A DNA stretch of 64,000 nt from an uncultured Desulfobacter sp. (GTDB taxonomy: Bacteria; Desulfobacterota; Desulfobacteria; Desulfobacterales; Desulfobacteraceae), in assembly GCA_963665095.1 (NCBI GenBank), contig OY762069.1, positions 5,440,001-5,504,000 of the forward strand. The letters are read 5' to 3'. The position numbers and the translations under genes were made by a program. The notes beneath the pieces are model-generated. The model saw only the letters and a program-made list of their open reading frames with translations, was not told where the DNA came from and made no database searches. Positions 44,977-56,549 of the stretch are shown in pieces. How positions within the stretch are numbered: the stretch's first letter is position 1; each line of letters opens with the position of its first letter.

Positions 44977-45276
44977 ATGAATTTTGAAGAATTTAAAAAT
45001 AATATAAAGAATGTGGCTGTGGGCAAGCACTTGCCTGATGCCTTGTATCTTCATAAATCAGTATTAGATAACGTGCCTGATTCACTAAAAGCGTTTATAG
45101 TAGACGCCATTAGTAATCTAAATCTTTCAACAGAGCCTTGGACAGTCCTGAAATTATACAAAAGGGAATTCACAATATCTTTATTGAATTATCCTGAATT
45201 ATATAACGAAGGATTCCCCTCTTTAACAAGCAGCTGTTTCATTGACCTGCAAGACTTAGGGTTTGCGCAAAAATAA
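44977..45276 (+). pseudogene. N-terminal fragment resembling the DNA phosphorothioation-associated putative methyltransferase
   Basis: 'VGKHLPDALYLHKS', 'W.VLKL....F.ISLLNYP.....GFPSL..S..IDL'; ends abruptly at an IS end near 45256. Confidence 0.6.
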
Positions 45277-45383: not shown

Positions 45384-45594
45384 GCCGAGCTGTTTTTTGT
45401 TTCAAATTGCAATCAGGCATGCGCACGGGCTCTGATGTTTTAGAAAATGCTGCCGATTGTGTTGTGATTCATCCCTGGAAATAATATGGCCCTGGCCAAT
45501 GAGGAGAGCTGCCGGGAACCTGCGTGAGGATCTCTTAGATTGTAAAATAACCGTTTGAATGGTCATCCTTATCAATTCTGAATTTTAAAACAAA

Positions 45595-45622
45595 TTGACA
45601 ACAAGACCTGTTACAGTATACT
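45595..45622 (+). promoter_or_regulatory. Sigma70 promoter of selC
   Basis: TTGACA-16 bp-TATACT just upstream of the tRNA. Confidence 0.7.
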
Positions 45623-45636
45623 TTGTTGCCGATCAC

Positions 45637-45734
45637 GGAAGCACACGGCTCACTGGTGGGGCCCTCGGACTTCAAATCCGATGTGCGGGGCTAATACCCT
45701 CGCGGGTGGGTTCGATTCCCATGTGCTTCCGCCA
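45637..45734 (+). tRNA. selC: tRNA-Sec (anticodon TCA)
   Basis: 98 nt; 8-bp acceptor stem GGAAGCAC/GTGCTTCC, long D stem, anticodon arm TCGGA-CTTCAAA-TCCGA, long variable arm, GCCA end. Confidence 0.96.
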
Positions 45735-45773
45735 TTTTTATATTTAAATTCAAGTTATTGTCTTTTTAAATCC

Positions 45774-45791
45774 CCCGACAAAACCCGACAA
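45774..45791 (+). repeat. Tandem CCCGACAA(AA) repeat, putative integrase arm site (left)
   Basis: CCCGACAAAACCCGACAA, identical to 55996-56013. Confidence 0.75.
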
Positions 45792-45953
45792 AGTTAAACT
45801 GGTTCTCTCCTCTCTTTCTTCGGCCTCTTGTTCCTTTCCCCATTTATTTCCTTGGACATTGATGTCGTATCAATAAGGTGTTTTGAATTATAAAATCCCC
45901 ATTTTTAAAAATAAAAAATTTAAAAAACTTGGCCCTACCGGTCTTGAGGGTGC

Positions 45954-46215
45954 GTTAGACTCTCCGGCATTGATAAAAATGTTCGGCCCAGATCGTTTGA
46001 ATAATTAAAAAACTCTCAACCGAACTTTTCGTCAATGGCGGGGAGTCCAACAACCGCAGGGCGTTAGTCTCTATCTTTAATCCTGAGCTTGTGGTCTATT
46101 TTACGATCATGATGCTTTGTGATTGGTTAAGCAGCTTCCCCCTGGCAAGCGGGTCCGCTTTTGCGGTAACGCTTGCCAGGGGGAAGCTGTTTTCCTGATC
46201 AGATGTCATCATCGA
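45954..46215. other. Long hairpin region, putative single-strand origin or packaging signal
   Basis: Imperfect IR 45954-46052; perfect 20-bp IR 46132-46151/46170-46189 with inner CCGC-TTTT-GCGG. Confidence 0.6.
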
Positions 46216-46368
46216 CTTGAAACCTTGAACTCATAGTGGGGATTTCCTTTAACTTGATTCATATAGAATAATTGTCACCAGATTCTTGAAAAAGTGTGTT
46301 TAAAAACCACAATAACATTGACAAGCTATATTATTTGTTCTTTACTAATCAAAATGGAAGGGAAAATT

Positions 46369-46749
46369 ATGACCAAGAAACCAAATAAAGAACGCTATAA
46401 CGTATATCTCGACAAGGAAAGCGTTGATATCGTTAAGGAGTTTATAAAGGGCACGGGATTAAGTTTATCGTCCTATTTGGACTTAATGACTTGTATTGCG
46501 GCTGATAGGATTATGGATTTTTGGACGATGCAATTTTCTGATGAATTTGAACCCACTAGCGAGGATGGCAATAACAAATACTGCAACATTTTGGTTGCTC
46601 ACCGGGTATTGCGATTGGCAGATTCAAAATTAAGCAATATCAGGATGAGCCCGAGTCAAATTAAAAAAATAAAAACCGGAGAATGGCATATTGAAATAGA
46701 CGATGATTTCGGTATTAGAATAAATCCGTTTAAAAAAGAAAATAAATAA
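46369..46749 (+). CDS. Putative CopG/ribbon-helix-helix-like regulator
   Basis: N-terminus 'KERYNVYLDKESVDIVKEFIKGTGLSLSSYL' fits a beta-strand-helix-G-S-helix pattern; directly upstream of rep. Confidence 0.45.
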   Translation: MTKKPNKERYNVYLDKESVDIVKEFIKGTGLSLSSYLDLMTCIAADRIMDFWTMQFSDEFEPTSEDGNNKYCNILVAHRVLRLADSKLSNIRMSPSQIKKIKTGEWHIEIDDDFGIRINPFKKENK

Positions 46750-47655
46750 GCTCAAGGGCGGTGCTGCAACACCACCCTTGAACCACATGTTCCAGAGAAC
46801 AATAACGCCGTGCAAGCAATTATGTGGCTCGGAACACTTCTTATATATAGCTTTTCGTAAGTAGTGTCAAATTTCAAGACCTCTTTGGGATATTTGAAAA
46901 CATTAATATTTTTTCAAATTCCAAGGGGGCTTTTTGTTTTGGAAACTCCAAAAATTGGAAAATGCCTGCATCCAGTCGGGGCTTTTTCAGGTATCACTCT
47001 TGACGGTAAAAAAATAGTCGCTGGGACGCTTCGCTGTAACTCTTGGACCTGCCCAGTTTGTCAACCGATTCTTATCAAAAAACTTTATAAAAGAATTCTT
47101 CAAGGGGCTATCGGTAAGGATGGAACTTCTCGTTATGGGTTGAAATTTTTAACTTTGACCTTTGCCGGAGCTGACGAAAGGCATCGAATAAAGGAAATGA
47201 TCGAAAAGCATAATAACGAACTATTTAAAAAGCCTGATAAAAACAGACCTTATGATCATGAACGCAAAGTCGAGAAAAAATTAGTTTACCCAGAGGTTGT
47301 CTATGACATCATGACCAAAAATTTTCATAAACTGATCCGGGCATTAAAAAAGCAATATGGGGATTTTTATTATTTCAGGGTAAATGAATTACAAAAGGAT
47401 GAAACACCACATTTCCATGTCTTGTTGGCAGGGAACGCTGTTATTCCCAAAGGTATTTTAGAGGCTGTCAGGGCCGTCTTGAAAATGCAGCCAAATCCCC
47501 GGTTTGAAAATGTATGTTCTTAGCTGGTTTTTCTTCTCTTAAAAATCAAATTTAAAAATTTCGTCTTCTTCATTTTTTTCCTTTCTTTGCCCTATGCTTT
47601 TTTCCGTACATACTGATCTTATTCATGTCTGATTTGAATCGGAGGCAATATGTAG

Positions 47656-48222
47656 ATGGGACTACTCAAGAAAAGAAGGTGCCGAAATTGTAGAAGATTA
47701 TTCGCTCCTAATCCAAGAAATATAGACTCTCAAAAATACTGTTCCAGATCTGAGTGCAGAAAAGCCAGCAAAAGGTGCAGCCAGAAAAAATGGCTGAACA
47801 AGCCTGAAAATCGAAACTACTTTTGTGGGCCTGCCCATGTTGAACGTGTTCAGGAATGGAGAAAGAAGAATCCCGGATATTGGAAGAAGACCAAAAGCCC
47901 AGATACGTTACAAGACTCGATATTGCCCCAACAGGCTGAAAATAAACAGGATTCAACGCAATTCATGGACAATGCGTTACAAGATTTCTTACGGGCGCAA
48001 CCTCCTGTCATTATAGGGTTAATCGCCAACTTTACAGGCAGTGCGTTACAAGATGACATCGCTTCCACGCTCCTTCGTATGAAAAAATACGGGCAAGACA
48101 TTTTATGTTCACAACCCCAAAAAGAAGGAGAGCAAAATGATTGCAAAGGCCCCCATTTTACCATCCAGGGTTCGAAAAACACCCCAAAGCTTCAGTTGGA
48201 TCGATCATCGCCTGGTGCGTGA
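47656..48222 (+). CDS. IS21-borne Cys-rich hypothetical protein
   Basis: 'CRNCRRLF.PNPRN...QKYC...EC.KASK', 'RVQEWRKKNPGYW'; GGAGG RBS. Confidence 0.65.
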   Translation: MGLLKKRRCRNCRRLFAPNPRNIDSQKYCSRSECRKASKRCSQKKWLNKPENRNYFCGPAHVERVQEWRKKNPGYWKKTKSPDTLQDSILPQQAENKQDSTQFMDNALQDFLRAQPPVIIGLIANFTGSALQDDIASTLLRMKKYGQDILCSQPQKEGEQNDCKGPHFTIQGSKNTPKLQLDRSSPGA

Positions 48223-48523
48223 ACGGCACATTGACAGGTGTACACACTCCCAGTCCGCCCTATATCTGTTTCTGGTGTGTGTGGCCGACAGTCAAGGCAT
48301 CAGCTACTATGGAGATAAGGCGATCATGGATCGGCTGTGCATGGATTCTGATGGCCTGAAGACAGCACGTTCCGGGTTAATACAGAATGGGCTGATTGCC
48401 TGGCAGAGACCTATTTACCAGGTGCTTGCCCTTGACCCTGCTCCTGGTAAATCAAAACGGCACGGCTCCATGCTGCGTCTTTCAGATATTCTAAAAGCAG
48501 CAGCGGAGGGCAACCATGATTGA
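48137..48523 (+). CDS. IS21-borne hypothetical protein (possible winged HTH)
   Basis: 'FSWIDHRLVR...LYLFLVCVAD..G.SYY', 'YQVLAL'; overlaps the istA start. Confidence 0.65.
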   Translation: MIAKAPILPSRVRKTPQSFSWIDHRLVRERHIDRCTHSQSALYLFLVCVADSQGISYYGDKAIMDRLCMDSDGLKTARSGLIQNGLIAWQRPIYQVLALDPAPGKSKRHGSMLRLSDILKAAAEGNHD

Positions 48524-50215
48524 TTACGAAACCTATGTTCAAATCAGAAATTACTTTACCCGAGACGGCCTGACATACAGCCAGATTGCCAATGCCCTTG
48601 ATCTGGACCCCAGGACAGTTGCCAGGTGGGCCAACCTGAAAAGGTACCAGCCCAGACAGTCAGCCCCCAGAGAAAGCAAGCTTGATCCGTATAAGAACGC
48701 CATCCTGCATATGCTTGAAAAACATCCCTACAGTTCCCGCCAGATATTTCAACGAATCACCCAGGATGGTTTTGCCGGGGGCATCACCATTGTTGAGGAT
48801 TATGTCAGGAAGGTGCGGCCGCCCAAAACAAAGGCGTATTTGAAACTGAGTTTTGCTCCGGGTGAAGCTGCCCAGGTGGACTGGGGTTCTTATAGTACAG
48901 TAAGGGTGGGCAACACGACCCGGCGGTTGAGCTTTTTTGTGATGGTGATGTGCCACAGCCGCATGATGTACGTTGAGTTCACGGTCTCCCAGACCATGGA
49001 GCATTTTTTAGGCTGCCACCAGAATGCATTTGAGTTTTTTGGAAAGGTGCCGGAAAAGGTCATGGTGGACAATCTCAAATCCGCTGTTCTAAAAAGACTG
49101 CTGGGGAAAGCCCCGGTCTTCAACCCCAGATACCTTGATTTTGCAGATTATTACGGATTTACAATTGTTCCCTGTAATGTGCGCAAGGGTAATGAAAAAG
49201 GCCGGGTTGAAAATGCTGTGGGCTATGTCAAAAAGAATCTGCTCAACGGTCTTGAAATCCCTGATTTTAAGATCATGGAGCCCACCTGCAAACACTGGCT
49301 TGATACTGTCGCCAATGTCAGAACCCACGGAGAGACCGGTCAAAAGCCCGCAGAGATGTATGCCCTGGAATTGCCCCACCTATACCCTCTGCCGTCAGAA
49401 CCCTATGATATCGGTGTGGTAAAGCAGGTACGGGCTTCAAGACAGTACAGGGTAGTCATCGATACAAATGCTTACACAGTACCCGCCCAGCTGGCAGGGG
49501 TGGCTTTGACTGCCAAGCTTTACCCTGATCGGATCTGCTTTTACCATGAAGACAAGTTGGTTGCCCGCCATGTCAGATCCTATGGCCGCAAAAACGACCT
49601 TGAAGATCCTGATCACTCTAAAATCCTTTTGAGCCAGCGCAAAAAGGCCAGAGACCAGGCAATTTATATGCGTTTTTTAAGCCTCTCTGACAAGGCCCGG
49701 GAGTATTACAGGCAATTGCAGAACAGGCGGCTTAACGCCTCCCATCATGTACGGCAAATCGTGGCCTTGAGTGAAATCTACTCCCGGGAACAAGTTGCCA
49801 TGGCCATTGAAGATGCCTTTAAGTTCTCTGCATTCTCATGTGAATACATCGCCAACCTCCTTGAGCAGCGGGTTCGGTCTCCTGAAGTGGACCCCATGTC
49901 AAGACCGATTTTAACGTTTTTTAAGCTACATTTTCTCTGTTTCTAATTTCGAATCAGCCTGTTAAAGACCCTCTTTTCCGGCATATTTTTCTTGATATTT
50001 AATACCGCTATGTTATCCTCCCGCCGCCAACCCGGAGGATAGGGCAATGCTGGGAAGCAACCTGAGCGCCGTGGCTGGCGACGAAGACATGGGGGCAGTA
50101 TACGTTTAATGTATGCTGTCCTTCCCCCATGTTTTTGTCCTTAATGCGTTAAATCCTCGCGCCTTAGCGCGAAATCAATACCCCGTAGGGCCGCCGGAGG
50201 CATCAGGCCTTTCCT

Positions 50216-51022
50216 TTAAGCCGCTCGATAGACCGAAAACGGCACCTTATACCCCAGGGCTGAATGAAGTCTCTCCCGATTATAAAACCCGATAAACGCT
50301 TTTAACGATTGCTGAGCCTCTCTTACCGTTCTGTAGTCCTTCAAATAGACTTCTTCGTATTTAATCGTTCTCCACAGCCGTTCCACAAAAACGTTGTCCA
50401 AGGCTCTGCCCTTTGAATCCATGCTGATTTTGATGTTTTTAGCCTGGAGTATCTTCAAAAATTTTAATGAAGTGAACTGACTACCCTGGTCAGTGTTGAA
50501 AATCTCAGGTGTCGATACAATCAATGCCTCCTCAAGGGCCTCAATACAAAATGTATTCTCAAGGGTGTTACTGAGGCGCCATGAAAGGACATATCTGCTA
50601 AACCAATCCATAACCGCCAATAAGTACATAAATCCGTTTCCAATTCTAATGTATGTGATATCTGTACTCCATACCTGATCTGGCCTGTCAATTACGGCAT
50701 TTTTCAGCAAATAGGGGTAAACTTTATGGCTTTCATCCCTCCTTGTTGTTTTAGGTCCTGGGTAAATCGCTTCTATTCTCATCAGCTTCATCAGGCGCTG
50801 TACTCGTTTCCTGCTTACCGGATACCCCATATTGTTCAGCCAGGCTGTAAGCCTACGGCTTCCATAAAAGGGGGTTTTGGTATGCTGCTCATCAAGCAGA
50901 TCCATAAGGGTTAATGTATACGGGCTTATGGCTACCGGCCTGTAATACAACGCCCCTTTTGAAACCTGAAGCAGTTCACACTGCCGGTTAATGCTGATGG
51001 AAGGATGTTGTTTATCTATCAA
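50216..51022 (-). CDS. IS3 transposase OrfB (rve DDE domain)
   Basis: 'FYGSRR', 'WSTDITY', 'FNTDQGSQFTS', 'DNVFVERLWRTIKYE'. Confidence 0.92.
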   Translation of the reverse strand: MIDKQHPSISINRQCELLQVSKGALYYRPVAISPYTLTLMDLLDEQHTKTPFYGSRRLTAWLNNMGYPVSRKRVQRLMKLMRIEAIYPGPKTTRRDESHKVYPYLLKNAVIDRPDQVWSTDITYIRIGNGFMYLLAVMDWFSRYVLSWRLSNTLENTFCIEALEEALIVSTPEIFNTDQGSQFTSLKFLKILQAKNIKISMDSKGRALDNVFVERLWRTIKYEEVYLKDYRTVREAQQSLKAFIGFYNRERLHSALGYKVPFSVYRAA

Positions 51023-51032
51023 CCCCCTTCTG

Positions 51033-51317
51033 TCAGAGATTGATTGTATTAACCTTTTTTTTTAACCAGTCATTCTCAACTTCGAGCTGACCGATTTTCT
51101 TATATAATTCGTCTATTAGATTCTGAGTATCATTTGGGCTTTTCTTTTTCGCTGATGAAAACAACGTCGGAAGACCCTCTATCGCTTCTTTCTTCCATCT
51201 GTTTAACATAGTTCGATGAACCTGGTATTTGGATGACAACTCCGCAAGAGTTTCATTTTCTCGAATCACATCAACTACAACTTTAGCTTTGAACTTTCCG
51301 GTATAATTTTTTCTCAT
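51033..51317 (-). CDS. IS3 transposase OrfA (HTH)
   Basis: 'RKNYTGKFKAKV...TLAELSSKYQVH....RWKK', 'LYKKIGQL.VE.DWLKKK'. Confidence 0.9.
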   Translation of the reverse strand: MRKNYTGKFKAKVVVDVIRENETLAELSSKYQVHRTMLNRWKKEAIEGLPTLFSSAKKKSPNDTQNLIDELYKKIGQLEVENDWLKKKVNTINL

Positions 51318-51510
51318 GGACCTCCTTTTTCGGTACAAATTTGAACCGGGTTTTTATCACCTCATATGTACCTTAGCAACTGGTTCAAATTTCGGGGTCC
51401 ATTATATCCCCAGGAGCCCGGAGCCCTGCATGTTACACATAAAGCAGATTTACTGAACCTGACAATCCAGGAGCCTGATCTTAATATTTATACCGCCATA
51501 GGAGATAAAA

Positions 51511-52245
51511 ATGCCTGATCTTGAGAAATGCCTGTCCCACTTAAAACTACCTTATATCAGGGAAAACTATGAGTCAGTGGCTACCCTGGCTGCCCAGAAG
51601 CAATGGAGCCACGTTCAATATCTATCAGAGCTTGCCAGGCATGAATCACTACTGCGCCATGATAAAACCATCCAGCGCCGTATCCGTATGGCCAAGTTCC
51701 CGGTAATCAAAACCCTGGACCAGTTCAACTGGTCATGGCCCAGAAAAATCAATCAGGCTCAGATCCAGAATCTGTTCAGACTCAAGTTCATTGAAGAAAA
51801 GGGTAACATTATCGTGATCGGCCCGGTCGGTGTTGGGAAAACACATATTGCGACTGCTTTAGGTTACCAGGCCTGCCTGAAAAACCATACGGTTCTGTTC
51901 TCTTCTGCCATTGATATCGTCAACAATCTGGTGGCAGCCCAGAAGGCGGGTCAGTTAAAGCAGGAACTGAGAAAATACCTCAAGCCAACTTTGTTGATCA
52001 TGGATGAACTGGGCTACCTGCCCATTGACAAGATTGGGGCAGACCTGTTGTTCCAAATTATCAGTCAGCGCTATGAGCAAGGAGCCATCATAATAACCAC
52101 AAACCGGGTGTTCAAAGATTGGCCGGAGATCTTCAACAATGACATGACATTAACATCAGCTTTGCTGGACAGGCTTCTTCACCACACCGAGCCTGTGGTC
52201 ATTGAGGGTAAGAGTTTTAGAATGAAAGATGTGACGGAAGAATAA
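51511..52245 (+). CDS. istB: IS21 helper ATPase IstB
   Basis: 'GPVGVGKTH', 'LLIMDELGYLP', 'TTN', 'ALLDRLLHH', 'GKSFR'. Confidence 0.95.
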   Translation: MPDLEKCLSHLKLPYIRENYESVATLAAQKQWSHVQYLSELARHESLLRHDKTIQRRIRMAKFPVIKTLDQFNWSWPRKINQAQIQNLFRLKFIEEKGNIIVIGPVGVGKTHIATALGYQACLKNHTVLFSSAIDIVNNLVAAQKAGQLKQELRKYLKPTLLIMDELGYLPIDKIGADLLFQIISQRYEQGAIIITTNRVFKDWPEIFNNDMTLTSALLDRLLHHTEPVVIEGKSFRMKDVTEE

Positions 52246-52809
52246 CAAAGCCGAGGCCGGTCTACATGCATCTGGAGGCCGGCCCTTTAATCGCCTACAT
52301 TTTTAAACCGGGAGATTTATGACATGTTCACGCCCCGCCTGACAGAGGCCATAGAAAACAAATGGCGTGATTTATATGGAATGGGCTATGTGAGAATTAA
52401 TTGTATAAAATTCAAAGACCGAAAACACGCGATTCGGTATATGCTTAAATACATAACCAAGGATATTAAAAAACCTGGAAAAAGAAAAAGGATATTCACT
52501 GCCTCAAGACACGCCTTACTTAAAATTGTTAAACCACGGTGGATGGCATTACAAGTTTATATTGGAAGAGTTACAGATAAAGGGGTTTCCGAAGAAAAGG
52601 TGTCTTACAATATGGATGTTGGGCATGGCTATTGCGGGGTTACAAGTTCGGATCGTATCGCGATAGTACCAAAAACACATATTCTTAAAACTATAATGGA
52701 AAGACGGCTACAGCAACTTCTCGTAACAGAGATTTAAGGTTTTGCATTGACTTCCATGCCCCTAAAATATAACACTCGATTGAATTCACATTCAATTATG
52801 GGGGTGTGT

Positions 52810-53940
52810 ATGTCTGGTACAATTGGCCGATATAAAAAATCCTGGTACGTTCGCTGGTGGGACAAAAAAGCTCAGACGGATATTAAAATATACCGATATA
52901 AAGGATTCAAGCTTGAAACCAGGGCTTTTGCCGAAAAGCTTCTTCGAGCAATGCAAGAAGATGTTGAGAAAGGGACTTTTTACATTGAAAAGTATACTCA
53001 AAGCGGCTTTTCTGGCGTTGTCCCCTTTATTGACCAGTGGTTAGAAAACGCCGAAGATTTGTCTCCAGCGACATATAAAGGATACCGGTCGTATGTTGAA
53101 AATCATTTAAGACCATTCTTCCAGAAGCATAGTCAACTTGATCTCCCTGATATCCAATTAGATGTACTCGAAAAGCTAAGAAAAAGCCTGAAAGAAAAGG
53201 GCCTATCTCCTAAAACGCAAATCAACATAATGTATGCTATGCATTTGATTTTGGATGAAGCCAAAAGAAGCCATCGAATTACCCACATGCCCTCTTTCCC
53301 CAAAAAAAGACAATACCAATATTCAAAAAAGCCTATTCAATGGTTGCCGGAAGATAGGCAGTTGGCGATTATTGAAAGTATACCAGAAGAACACAGACCC
53401 ATATTTTATTTTTTAAAATACCACTTACGACGCCCCGCTGAAGCCTGTGCCCTTCATAAAGAAGATTATTATGATGGCGTTTTCACCATTCACCGTTCAG
53501 TTTCTGCCCGGGAGCTCACTCAAAAGACTAAAACAGGTGAAATTCATACCATTCCTTGTCATCCTGATTTTGAAAAATATATCGCAATCGAAGCAGAGAA
53601 ACAGAAACTGTATGGAATCTTTTCGCCTTTTTTTTTCATAAACCCCCAAGCACGGTAACCTGGAAAGCGATATATGGGAGAAGCATTAAATAGACTTTGG
53701 AATAAAGCATGTATACTGGTAGGGGAGGATATTCCTCTTTATGCAGGGACAAAGCACAGCTCCTGTTCTCAATATATTAACGAACGGGGCTTATCTGAAT
53801 CTGAATTACAAATCATTACTGACCACGCCAGAATCGAATCCGTAAGGGCATACACGAAAACAGAAGTCAAAAGAAAACGAGAATTGATGATTAAAAATAT
53901 TTTCAAGATTAATGGTAAAAGAAAACAAACTAAAAAGTAG
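52810..53940 (+). pseudogene. Tyrosine recombinase/integrase with an in-frame nonsense codon
   Basis: 'RRPAEAC', 'KTKTG', 'LYAGTKHS', 'TDHA', 'RAY'. The two ORFs share a frame and are separated by TAA at 53656-53658. Confidence 0.85.
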
Positions 53941-54052
53941 GTATCTAATCTGCCATCGACATGGCCAGGTCAAATGATTTTTTCTTGCCTTTAAGCTTTA
54001 TTTTTGAGACTCTTTTTATAAAATTCATTTTAAATTGGGAGTTATTAATATA

Positions 54053-55699
54053 ATGCCGAATCTCTCTGTAGTTCCGAATAATTCTGAAGTTGATCGTAAA
54101 TCGGATAATAGCTCATTAATAAAAGAAATTGAGTCAAGATCAACGAAGGAGATAATAATAGGCTTTTCTGGAATGATGGGCAGTGGGATCTCTGGAATGG
54201 TTGAAACGTTTCAAAAAAAATTTGAGAAAAAGGGCTACGAAGCAAAGCACCTCAAGCTTAGTGATTTCATAAAAGAACGATACAACACCGTAAGGTTCCA
54301 GTTAGAGGATGATTATATAGATTATAAAACGTTAGATGAAGATCCTCAAAGATTAGAATTTTTCAAAAAGATAATAACACTGCAATCAATTGGAAACCAT
54401 TTACGAGAACAATATAGCACAAGTATTCTCTCGCAGTATGCACTTTCTAAAATTTTTAATGATCGGATTAGAAGGGATGTTAATGGAAAGGAGATAGAGG
54501 ACAACCTCGATAAAATTATAGAAGATACGAAAGAAGCTAATATCAAAAAAGTTACATTCATAGACAGTTTAAAACATATAGATGAATATAATCTCTTTAG
54601 GACTATTTATGGGAATATGTTCTATATGATCGGTGTATTGTGCCCTGAAAAAATTCGTATGGAACGTATTTTAAAGGACTACGACATTGAAGAACAGCAG
54701 CTTCAAATTTTGATTGACCGGGATAAAAAAGAAGATATAGAGAACGGTCAACAGACATTGAAGGTTTTGCAAGAAGCAGATATTTTTTTGAGAAATATTT
54801 CCTTGGATGAATCAAATGATAGCATCGAAAGATATGTGGATTTAATATTGGGAGAACCTTTTATTCGTCCAACGATTGATGAGTTTGGGATGTTTACGGC
54901 CCAAGCTGCAGCACGGCAGTCAGGATGCATTTCAAGACAAGTTGGAGCATCCATTTTCAGTAAGGATAACGACATTATTTCTACGGGTTGTAACGATGCC
55001 CCCATATTTGGTGGAGGGCATTATGCCAATGACGGTACTGTTCCTGATGGAGAACGAAAAGACAACAGATGTTGTTCATTAAGAGCTGAAAATAAATGTA
55101 AAAATACGGAGCAGTTGGATAAGATTCTTGAAGACATAAAAACTATTGTTAAAGAAAACGTAGGTGGAATAAATAATGAGGACACAGAATCTCTAAGCAG
55201 AAAAATTTTTAAAAACACACGATTAAAAAGTATAATAGAATTTTCCAAAGCAGTTCATGCTGAAATGGATGCGATCACTACGGCGGCACGTAATGGTGTT
55301 AATGCACTCAAAGGGGCAACTTTATATTGCACAACTTTTCCTTGCCATTTGTGTGCAACTAATATAATAGCAGCAGGAATAGAGAAGGTTTGTTATATAG
55401 AACCATACTTGAAAAGTTTAGCTGTTGATTTGCATGAAGATCAGGTAAATTTTGACCCCAAAACTATTGACCCAAATCATGAGGACAATAGAAACAAAGT
55501 CCTTTTTTTACCTTTTGAGGGTGTTGCGCCAAAGCAATATTTAAATATTTTTAGATCTTGTGAACGCAAAGAAAAAGATGGCACCAAAATCGAGTATGAT
55601 ATAAAAGAAGCGATCCCAGCATTAAAACAGATGATGGACTCCTACACAGATTATGAAAAAGCAATATCTAAGTCTTTTAATGATTTAATAGGGGAATAA
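54053..55699 (+). CDS. Anti-phage dCTP deaminase (AvcD-like; P-loop kinase-like + dCMP deaminase domains)
   Basis: 'EIIIGFSGMMGSG', 'IDSLKH..E', 'SGCISRQVGA', 'GCNDAP', 'VHAEMDAI', 'YCTTFPCHLCA', 'YIEPY.KS', 'PFEGVAP'. Confidence 0.9.
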   Translation: MPNLSVVPNNSEVDRKSDNSSLIKEIESRSTKEIIIGFSGMMGSGISGMVETFQKKFEKKGYEAKHLKLSDFIKERYNTVRFQLEDDYIDYKTLDEDPQRLEFFKKIITLQSIGNHLREQYSTSILSQYALSKIFNDRIRRDVNGKEIEDNLDKIIEDTKEANIKKVTFIDSLKHIDEYNLFRTIYGNMFYMIGVLCPEKIRMERILKDYDIEEQQLQILIDRDKKEDIENGQQTLKVLQEADIFLRNISLDESNDSIERYVDLILGEPFIRPTIDEFGMFTAQAAARQSGCISRQVGASIFSKDNDIISTGCNDAPIFGGGHYANDGTVPDGERKDNRCCSLRAENKCKNTEQLDKILEDIKTIVKENVGGINNEDTESLSRKIFKNTRLKSIIEFSKAVHAEMDAITTAARNGVNALKGATLYCTTFPCHLCATNIIAAGIEKVCYIEPYLKSLAVDLHEDQVNFDPKTIDPNHEDNRNKVLFLPFEGVAPKQYLNIFRSCERKEKDGTKIEYDIKEAIPALKQMMDSYTDYEKAISKSFNDLIGE

Positions 55700-55702
55700 C
55701 AA

Positions 55703-55882
55703 ATGAAACATTATAAATATATTCAATTAGAACTTCCCTTCACCTTTAGCAATGATAAAAAACCATCAAATATGGTTCCATTCCCACGTGAAAAAGTTCT
55801 TAAAAAAAGAGAAGAAGAACGGCTGAAAGCTATTGAAAAAGGTCTTGAAAAGAGTGTGAAGTCACTGCGATGGTATAAATAG
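55703..55882 (+). CDS. 59-aa small protein immediately downstream of the dCTP deaminase (absent from the ORF track)
   Basis: MKHYKYIQLELPFTFSNDKKPSNMVPFPREKVLKKREEERLKAIEKGLEKSVKSLRWYK*; GGGGA RBS; starts 3 nt after the deaminase stop and precedes the terminator. Confidence 0.6.
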   Translation: MKHYKYIQLELPFTFSNDKKPSNMVPFPREKVLKKREEERLKAIEKGLEKSVKSLRWYK

Positions 55883-55914
55883 TTTAAGTATAAAAAAAAT
55901 TAACGAAAATAAGG

Positions 55915-55945
55915 CCCGCTATCTCCTGATAGCGGGTTTATTTTT
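55915..55945 (+). terminator. Intrinsic terminator closing the deaminase/small-ORF unit
   Basis: CCCGCTATC-TCCT-GATAGCGGG followed by TTTATTTTT. Confidence 0.8.
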
Positions 55946-55995
55946 GATGATTTTAGGGTACCCATTAAATGAATAATCCTCATTAAAAATAAAAA

Positions 55996-56013
55996 CCCGA
56001 CAAAACCCGACAA
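55996..56013 (+). repeat. Tandem CCCGACAA(AA) repeat, putative integrase arm site (right)
   Basis: Identical to 45774-45791. Confidence 0.75.
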
Positions 56014-56072
56014 TTGCTTTATAAGAAATATATAACAACTTGAAATCGCATAAAATGTAAATAGATCTCTAT

Positions 56073-56102
56073 GGTTCGACTCCCATGTGCTTCCGCCATT
56101 TT
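56073..56102 (+). repeat. att site: duplicate of the selC 3' end
   Basis: GGTTCGACTCCCATGTGCTTCCGCCATTTT vs 45709-45738 (1 mismatch). Confidence 0.92.
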
Positions 56103-56128
56103 ATTTATAATTTCAATCAGTTAATTAT

Positions 56129-56228
56129 GATGGTCCCGTAAAAAGTCGAAAAAGGCAAAACCGCTATTAATAAATTCAGTATGTTATATCAAAAAATTTG
56201 CTAAAATCGGACTTTTTACGAGTGCATC
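56129..56228. mobile_element. 100-bp MITE
   Basis: Terminal IRs GATGGTCCCGTAAAAAGTC / GACTTTTTACGAGTGCATC (16/19), flanked by direct repeat AATTAT. Confidence 0.7.
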
Positions 56229-56357
56229 AATTATCAAAAGCCCTATCCCCAATAGTGCCAAAAGAGTTTCCCTGTTTTATTTCTACGGCCCAGGTGTTCA
56301 GCCAATTTTAAGGCTGTCTTTTCTGAAGTTCGGCCAAATTAAACTGCCGTTCGACAG

Positions 56358-56549
56358 TTGCAGGTTCATTTTAAGGGATACAAATCCTATATTAAAAATC
56401 ATATCAAGCCGTATTTCCAGAAAAGGCCGGAATTAATGTTGCACTACGTTCAACTTGATATCCTGACGGATTTTTTAATAAAGTCTTTAAATCTTACCAA
56501 GAAATCGTTGCATGATGGACGCGCACACGATATAAACCCCATGTCATAA
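56358..56549 (+). pseudogene. Fragment of a second, related integrase
   Basis: 'KGYKSYIKNHIKPYFQKRPELMLHYVQLDIL' aligns with 'KGYRSYVENHLRPFFQKHSQLDLPDIQLDVL' in the 52810 integrase. Confidence 0.7.

Follow-up and report, generated by a model that had tools for sequence, protein, structure and literature searches.

A small gene directly downstream of an AvcD-type dCTP deaminase in Desulfobacter and its probable relationship to the avcI open reading frame

The deaminase gene and its 59-codon neighbour

We analysed a 64,000-nucleotide (nt) stretch of the genome of an uncultured Desulfobacter sp. (contig OY762069.1; the whole stretch is called the window below), in which a gene for an AvcD-type anti-phage deoxycytidine triphosphate (dCTP) deaminase is followed by a 59-codon open reading frame (ORF). 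The features of this pair, in window coordinates, are listed here.

53941..54052, plus strand: intergenic region of 112 nt from the integrase stop to the deaminase ATG, containing the deaminase ribosome-binding site (RBS)
54053..55699, plus strand: AvcD-type anti-phage dCTP deaminase, intact, 548 amino acids (aa) from the ATG, with a P-loop kinase-like domain and a zinc deoxycytidine monophosphate (dCMP)/dCTP deaminase domain (PF00383)
55691..55696, plus strand: Shine-Dalgarno-like GGGGAA for the 59-aa ORF, within the last deaminase codons
55703..55882, plus strand: 59-aa partner protein, a probable homologue of the V. cholerae avcI ORF, with (in a structure model) an extended N-terminal half, a helix at residues 29-56 and Trp57
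55724..55741, plus strand: QLELPF (residues 8-13 of the 59-aa ORF), matching the hexapeptide type of sliding-clamp motif; putative clamp site
55912..55949, plus strand: intrinsic-terminator-like hairpin after the 59-aa ORF, closing the two-gene unit (stem of 12 pairs at 55912-55939, followed by a T tail; the minus strand scored as well)

The deaminase scored 423 bits against NCBIfam NF041025 (cut-off 400), covering positions 1-434 of 437 in that profile, and matched the PADLOC dCTPase model with an expectation value (E) of 4.6e-149. Its kinase-like motifs (G40MMGSGI, and D171 within F169IDS) align with the Walker A/B-like S52 loop and D162 of Vibrio cholerae AvcD, and its catalytic residues H402, E404, C431 and C434 (within H402AE and P430CHLC) align with H382, E384, C411 and C414 of that enzyme; the zinc site (HAE...PCxxC) was invariant in 173 aligned deaminase homologues. 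A structure model with a predicted local distance difference test score of 89 resembled dCMP deaminases and adenylate-kinase-related proteins (3h0k/3lw7), and searches of the PDB by sequence and by fold found no AvcD structure. The nearest named relative (70%) comes from a Desulfobacteraceae genome. Judged by these alignments, the window deaminase is a member of a known family, NF041025 (predicted dCTP/dCMP deamination and phage protection), and the deaminase family has been reported in 2.5% of 38,167 genomes.

The small ORF starts 3 nt (CAA) after the deaminase stop codon, with the GGGGA of its Shine-Dalgarno-like element positioned 7-11 nt before the start; a similar element is found in L161, L008 and L090, the three deaminase loci closest to the window. 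Its translation may be coupled to that of the deaminase. A terminator scan was weak by itself (3 found, versus 2.3 expected in shuffled sequences), with the hairpin placed directly 3′ of the small ORF, and a promoter scan remained at chance level (12 versus 13.0). The first-pass annotation of the window had described an intact deaminase, a 3-nt gap, an RBS-bearing 59-aa ORF and a shared terminator, and the coordinates, the NF041025 and PADLOC matches and the hairpin bear this description out; the gap, the RBS and the shared terminator-like hairpin together give the genes the operon arrangement of a type II toxin-antitoxin (TA) pair.

In the three closest loci the small ORF is likewise kept directly downstream (deaminases 70-78% identical, ORFs 53-54%). 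Compared with those copies, the window ORF shows 0.23-0.28 nonsynonymous differences per site (pN) and 0.64-0.70 synonymous differences per site (pS), and a 12-nt indel among the copies preserves the frame. On a profile built without the window clade it also beat 1000 of 1000 shuffles, even with the QLELPF part removed. A chance ORF is ruled out by this conservation, by purifying selection and by the shuffle test, and a detached C-terminal fragment of the deaminase was rejected as well, given that homologous deaminases end at the same place and that the profile matches standalone proteins of 38-127 aa. A homologue search with the 59-aa sequence itself returned only the self-match, no model in Pfam, PADLOC or NCBIfam covered the ORF or its family, and the ESM Atlas returned unnamed clusters alone (≤0.81). 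Because direct homologue and family-model searches were empty, the partner family is visible solely through gene neighbourhood combined with profiles.

The first-pass annotation had also remarked that about 110 bp between the integrase stop and the deaminase ATG leave little room for AvcI, the inhibitor published as a non-coding RNA encoded upstream of avcD in V. cholerae. The interval measures 112 nt, and a minimal AvcI takes up 152-174 nt according to excerpts of the original report (10.1101/2021.03.31.437871), and we detected neither a partner-family match nor a conserved RNA within it. The upstream DNA of L008 and L161 is unrelated to that of the window, with similarity limited to ~24 nt at the deaminase start, and both loci keep the small ORF all the same; an AvcI RNA overlapping the 3′ end of the integrase gene was rejected on these grounds. 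An Rfam scan of positions 45500-56500 recovered tRNA-Sec alone. Since no upstream locus exists, the window pair separates the question of RNA versus protein cleanly.

A partner family on either side of the deaminase

We surveyed deaminase loci, taking the best 80 of 524 in GTDB genomes, the best 80 of 532 in metagenomes, 43 viral ones (2 weak ones dropped), 2 from a phylum sample and 5 annotated records. The resulting set of 209 entries, including the window, yielded 16,279 six-frame segments; it is biased toward relatives of the window enzyme and includes near-duplicates.

A profile built from 60 ORFs found downstream of the deaminase, with the window clade excluded, picked up 39 ORFs on the upstream side and another 26 downstream at E ≤ 0.05, and not a single control. 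The window ORF scored E = 0.0011 on the downstream-only profile, and the 174-nt avcI ORF of V. cholerae scored E = 2.1e-4 and beat 1000 of 1000 shuffles. Conversely, a profile seeded with 26 rule-picked, Trp-ending upstream ORFs (3 of them non-members by eye) reached 36 further upstream ORFs (one duplicating a non-member) as well as 19 on the downstream side with E up to 0.05, and the first control came at rank 92. Starting from nothing but the window clade, six rounds of profile searching collected 147 ORFs, of which 87 lay downstream and 60 upstream, without converging; the first control had E = 1.5.

Among the 181 loci whose flanks each extend to 350 nt or more, a partner at E ≤ 0.5 was present in 150, downstream in 77 and upstream in 73, with none carrying it on both sides and 31 having neither; many of those 31 show a look-alike ORF below threshold. 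The 28 loci with shorter flanks gave 14 downstream, 5 upstream and 9 without a match. In the loci examined, then, a family of coding partners that includes the avcI ORF flanks the deaminase on one side and never on both. A FastTree tree of 174 deaminases (144 of them labelled by partner position) required at least two switches of position; the loci are therefore not independent, yet the partner gene has moved.

The family consensus reads M..QLxL...NVxxF...basic helix..AxKLxW, at a mean identity of 17%. The first-pass annotation had proposed checking downstream ORFs for QLxLxF and a C-terminal Trp; both proved to be conserved, as did the ORF itself as a coding gene that accompanies the deaminase. 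Searching 1.84 billion representative sequences with a profile returned 231 matches, and among the 150 listed the proteins were standalone, 38-127 aa in length, with Trp in the last four residues of 145. When the genome to which the window belongs was scanned (104,631 segments), the window ORF alone scored, the next segment having E = 0.42. When 401 class-level genomes were searched in turn for orphan partners, the seed genome alone was recovered, and this test appears insensitive.

Several variants of the small ORF were seen alongside these. Minimal members of 38-50 aa (P0205, P0223, P0237, P0244, P0246, P0251 and P0264) consist of KVxxF, the helix and AxKLxW alone; they come from short metagenomic contigs and could be either minimal partners or phage-encoded mimics. 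The upstream ORFs of the enterotoxigenic Escherichia coli (ETEC) type (L088:1114-1299, L182-L202) keep NV(V/I)xF and have an acidic tail without Trp, as a divergent subtype, and a mainly alphaproteobacterial subtype (downstream ORFs of L016, L067, L075, L085, L118 and L136) keeps the QL motif and the helix and ends in SG(I/L), again without Trp. In a distant deaminase subfamily (L218, L219 and L220) a different downstream ORF of 52-62 aa shares 'HL....V.SWP.W', which suggests a second partner family.

The connection to V. cholerae was drawn through 285 genomes of one genus, which gave 8 matches including locus L214; a metagenomic locus, L132, has the same small ORF. Both fit the published V. 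cholerae locus in each detail that could be compared, in the enzyme (532 aa, S52, D162-Q163 and E384) and in the small ORFs, where a CTG-start ORF of 222 nt encloses an ATG-start ORF of 174 nt with an interior out-of-frame ATG. The encoded peptide corresponds to a V. cholerae hypothetical protein in the database, found on ~1000 contigs. Translated in frame, the primers for the avcI probe in PMC10511110 give M-V-T-N-L-N at the start and Q-K-I-R-W-stop at the end. A search with the avcI region found no match in E. coli genomes, and primer scans of viral contigs gave three loci that we judged to be chance. Some V. cholerae records (P0275 and P0283) carry an 82-aa form of the avcI ORF in which the C-terminal helix and Trp are replaced past a lysine run, apparently by a frameshift.

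Taken together, these results indicate that the partner is very probably a translated and selected gene homologous to the avcI ORF. The first-pass annotation had supposed a regulation different from that of AvcID; given the homology, it is simpler to read the window pair as AvcID with its small gene at the opposite flank of the deaminase.

The QLELPF segment fits the hexapeptide clamp motif Q-phi-x-L-x-L, of which QLSLPL (Hda) and QVELEF (Pol III) are examples in excerpts of a recent report (10.64898/2026.05.27.728225). A strict QL-type pattern occurred in 59 of 89 distinct downstream members; upstream, 11 of 68 carried it, and among 5,844 control ORF tails the rate was 1.1%. The pattern lies mostly near residue 10, and in the model QLELPF is without secondary structure. 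The clamp-binding-like motif singled out in the first pass is thus real and conserved in most downstream members, but the family is not built around it, and it is absent from the peptide of V. cholerae. Being conserved but optional, it cannot be the inhibitory core. Hexapeptides of this kind are known in replication enzymes, whereas here the putative site lies in a 59-aa defence accessory protein.

The motif invites a reading in which the partner is a sensor or adaptor, connecting the deaminase either with the replisome by way of the clamp or with a protease; dCTP would then be drained at replicating DNA, or the enzyme activated upon takeover of the clamp by a phage. The frequency of the motif downstream, its position in an extended region and its agreement with a published hexapeptide class all speak for such a role, as would the central NVVxF/LxVV segment of the partner, which may resemble the ClpX-tethering tails of SspB adaptors. 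Nevertheless we regard it as doubtful: the motif is absent from 57 of 68 upstream members, including that of V. cholerae, where the locus inhibits; what all members retain is the C-terminal helix and its Trp; and the literature that we searched contained no link between clamp binding and phage-defence antitoxins.

Protein, RNA and the inhibition of the deaminase

We measured selection in pairs of loci for which deaminase identity (62-97%) was the sole basis of choice, comparing the final 25 codons of the small ORFs aligned without gaps. The ratio pN/pS in frame was 0.38 for 17 upstream pairs and 0.40 for 20 downstream pairs, against 1.13-1.24 in the other two frames, and mismatches at the three codon positions numbered 111/80/181 in the upstream and 165/129/270 in the downstream pairs. 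By this measure both positions are coding, and an added RNA function remains compatible with the data. Folding compared with shuffles revealed no excess structure in avcI (z -0.33) or in the window ORF (z +0.27), the four closest downstream copies together gave a negligible consensus structure (-2.4 kcal/mol, with an unfavourable covariation term), and the window ORF has no nucleotide similarity to avcI, though the peptides are related.

In excerpts of the V. cholerae work, avcI inhibits AvcD after translation and in trans, and inhibition is abolished by deletion of either 18 nt at its 5′ end or 4 nt at its 3′ end (10.1101/2021.03.31.437871). The 18 nt take in the ATG and the in-frame ATT codons at positions 2 and 5, and the 4 nt consist of the stop and the base before it, with which the Trp codon ends. 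Both phenotypes fit a peptide, since the 5′ cut removes the ATG and ATT starts and the 3′ cut hits the Trp codon and the stop. ATT can start translation weakly. Also in favour of a peptide, the homologous 'difV' loci were, in excerpts of the original report, picked as small ORFs with 'no strong' similarity, and their inhibition is cognate-specific (10.1101/2021.03.31.437871).

The inhibitor may instead be RNA, as published for AvcI (a type III-like arrangement), with the ORF translated for a second purpose in a dual-function transcript and, in the window, the 3′ part of the operon acting as the inhibitor. The assignment to RNA is based on the finding, in the same excerpts, that avcI with its ATG changed to a stop or without its RBS still inhibits (10.1101/2021.03.31.437871); excerpts of the published work further report direct RNA binding by AvcI, a lack of AvcD activation by spectinomycin and an abundant native avcI transcript of ~280-300 nt. 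To accommodate the mutants, the peptide model would need leaky initiation (for example at the adjacent ATT) that suffices under overexpression. An inhibitory RNA, in turn, is hard to reconcile with the lack of nucleotide similarity between window ORF and avcI despite related peptides, with the absence of excess or consensus folding and with third codon positions that vary freely, and it leaves unexplained why the 4 nt ending the Trp codon are needed. We consider it unlikely as the full account, and a small protein, rather than only RNA, is the likely brake on the deaminase.

In addition to the published RNA data, several of our own results weigh against a protein antitoxin. Four-fold degenerate sites differed less often in the small ORFs than in the deaminases, both upstream (89/199, or 0.45, versus 1299/2334, or 0.56; p = 0.004) and downstream (150/310, or 0.48, versus 1688/2922, or 0.58; p = 0.002); this mild reduction in synonymous divergence, alike on both sides, would suit an RNA inhibitor and leaves room for some constraint at the RNA level. 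The ETEC 'difV' ORF, whose locus inhibits its cognate enzyme, scored only E = 3.5-4.5 and is without the Trp. The five positions that render AvcD insensitive to AvcI are mostly variable (S132, F135, D211, A537 and K540 in the window enzyme). Finally, the upstream-only profile missed the window ORF directly, its relatives appearing at E = 15 and 29, and 31 of the 181 loci with full flanks remained without a partner match.

The peptide could also be functionless, with translation of the ORF merely tuning mRNA stability or deaminase translation. Such a role would suit the low mean identity of the family and its constant location next to the deaminase, but we hold it to be very improbable in view of the purifying selection on the amino acids, the conserved motifs, a gene that works from either side of the deaminase, and inhibition that is exerted in trans and post-translationally.

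On balance we favour, by a modest degree, the view that deaminase and 59-aa protein make up an AvcID-type anti-phage unit of two genes. The small protein would be a labile antitoxin that relies on its C-terminal helix and Trp and, in this lineage, has an accessory tether to the clamp. Deaminase and partner would be made from one transcript with coupled translation, and the conserved C-terminal half (an NVVxF-like strand, the amphipathic basic helix and the terminal Trp) would dock on the deaminase and hold it inactive. In excerpts of the published work, AvcD depletes dCTP/dCMP and is switched on by the shut-off of transcription. If the partner mRNA and protein are short-lived, shut-off of host transcription by a phage would free the enzyme and starve phage replication of dCTP. 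The N-terminal QLxLxF of the downstream type may be an accessory module by which the partner, and perhaps the whole complex with it, is anchored to the DnaN clamp; this is the weakest step of the scheme.

A broader proposal, which we offer tentatively and with less confidence, is that AvcI has been misassigned: the antitoxin throughout the family would be a protein of 55-75 aa ending in a Trp-tipped helix, which would make AvcID type II, and in roughly half of the lineages this antitoxin would also bear a sliding-clamp motif, tying immunity by nucleotide depletion to the condition of the host replisome. If the conserved product is a protein, a textbook RNA inhibitor of a metabolic enzyme becomes a protein or dual-function antitoxin, and single-gene cloning or annotation of these deaminases would miss a required part, above all where the partner lies downstream. 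The clamp motif of the partner would link a defence antitoxin to the replisome.

The host element and known systems

The pair forms the last cargo of a decayed element of 10.4 kb, whose GC content is 0.34-0.39 over the cargo. Its other features are as follows.

45709..56102, no strand assigned: small integrative element between 30-nt direct repeats (45709-45738 and 56073-56102), located at the tRNA-Sec 3′ end
46864..52737, plus strand: rolling-circle Rep in two pieces (46864-47523 and 52324-52737; Pfam PF23343, weak RepSA)
~47465-52346: IS21-like element splitting Rep, with a nested IS3-like element (~49882-51406); boundaries from multi-copy matches in the same genome
52810..53940, plus strand: tyrosine integrase with an in-frame stop (TAA, 53656-53658)

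The first-pass description of an intact deaminase beside broken Rep and integrase genes agrees with this layout, with Rep split by insertion sequences (IS) and the integrase interrupted by its in-frame TAA. By their ORF sequences the insertions are IS21-like and IS3-like. Before the IS insertion the element would have measured ~5.5 kb, resembling a defence-carrying satellite. It also holds an ORF of 125-151 aa (46294-46749) of no known family, an 18-nt repeat just within both ends (45774-45791 and 55996-56013) and a 50-nt hairpin at 46109-46212. Just past the right att repeat lies a 63-aa ORF (56358-56549, in 56300-56549) that by eye is like part of the element's integrase, perhaps the remnant of an older element. 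A 99-aa ORF before tRNA-Sec (44977-45276) may resemble the N-terminus of a 'DNA phosphorothioation-associated putative methyltransferase', for which Pfam gave no support.

Among known systems, the anti-phage dCTP deaminases of E. coli AW1.7 and U09 (10.1101/2021.04.26.441389) belong to the same enzyme family, for which the window enzyme scores above the curated cut-off; the available passages of that report describe single genes cloned with their promoter regions and make no mention of a partner protein. Type II defence TA systems that are triggered by host shut-off, such as RnlAB (PMC11951105), share the proposed logic by which a labile antitoxin is lost and the toxin freed. In the window, by comparison, the partner shows no evident DNA-binding domain, the toxin is an enzyme that depletes nucleotides, and we saw no sequence relation.

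The closest counterpart is AvcID (DcdV/DifV) of V. cholerae VSP-1 (10.1101/2021.03.31.437871, PMC10511110), with which the window shares a toxin of kinase-like and zinc deaminase domains with all catalytic residues, a two-gene unit carried on a mobile element and an adjacent locus homologous to the avcI ORF at the protein level only. Excerpts of 2025 reviews retain AvcI as a small RNA antitoxin, and our search, which left subscription papers and bioRxiv supplements outside its scope, found no published description of AvcI as a protein or of a downstream partner. The two systems differ in that the partner lies upstream in V. cholerae and downstream in the window, where no avcI stands immediately 5′ of the deaminase gene; in the N-terminal QLELPF, which the V. 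cholerae peptide does not have; and in nucleotide sequence, in which the window ORF shows no similarity to avcI. Furthermore, AvcI has been published as a non-coding RNA, whereas the family locus in the window shows coding selection and no excess RNA structure. The window layout therefore falls outside the published definition of AvcID as upstream and non-coding, yet it probably works like AvcID.

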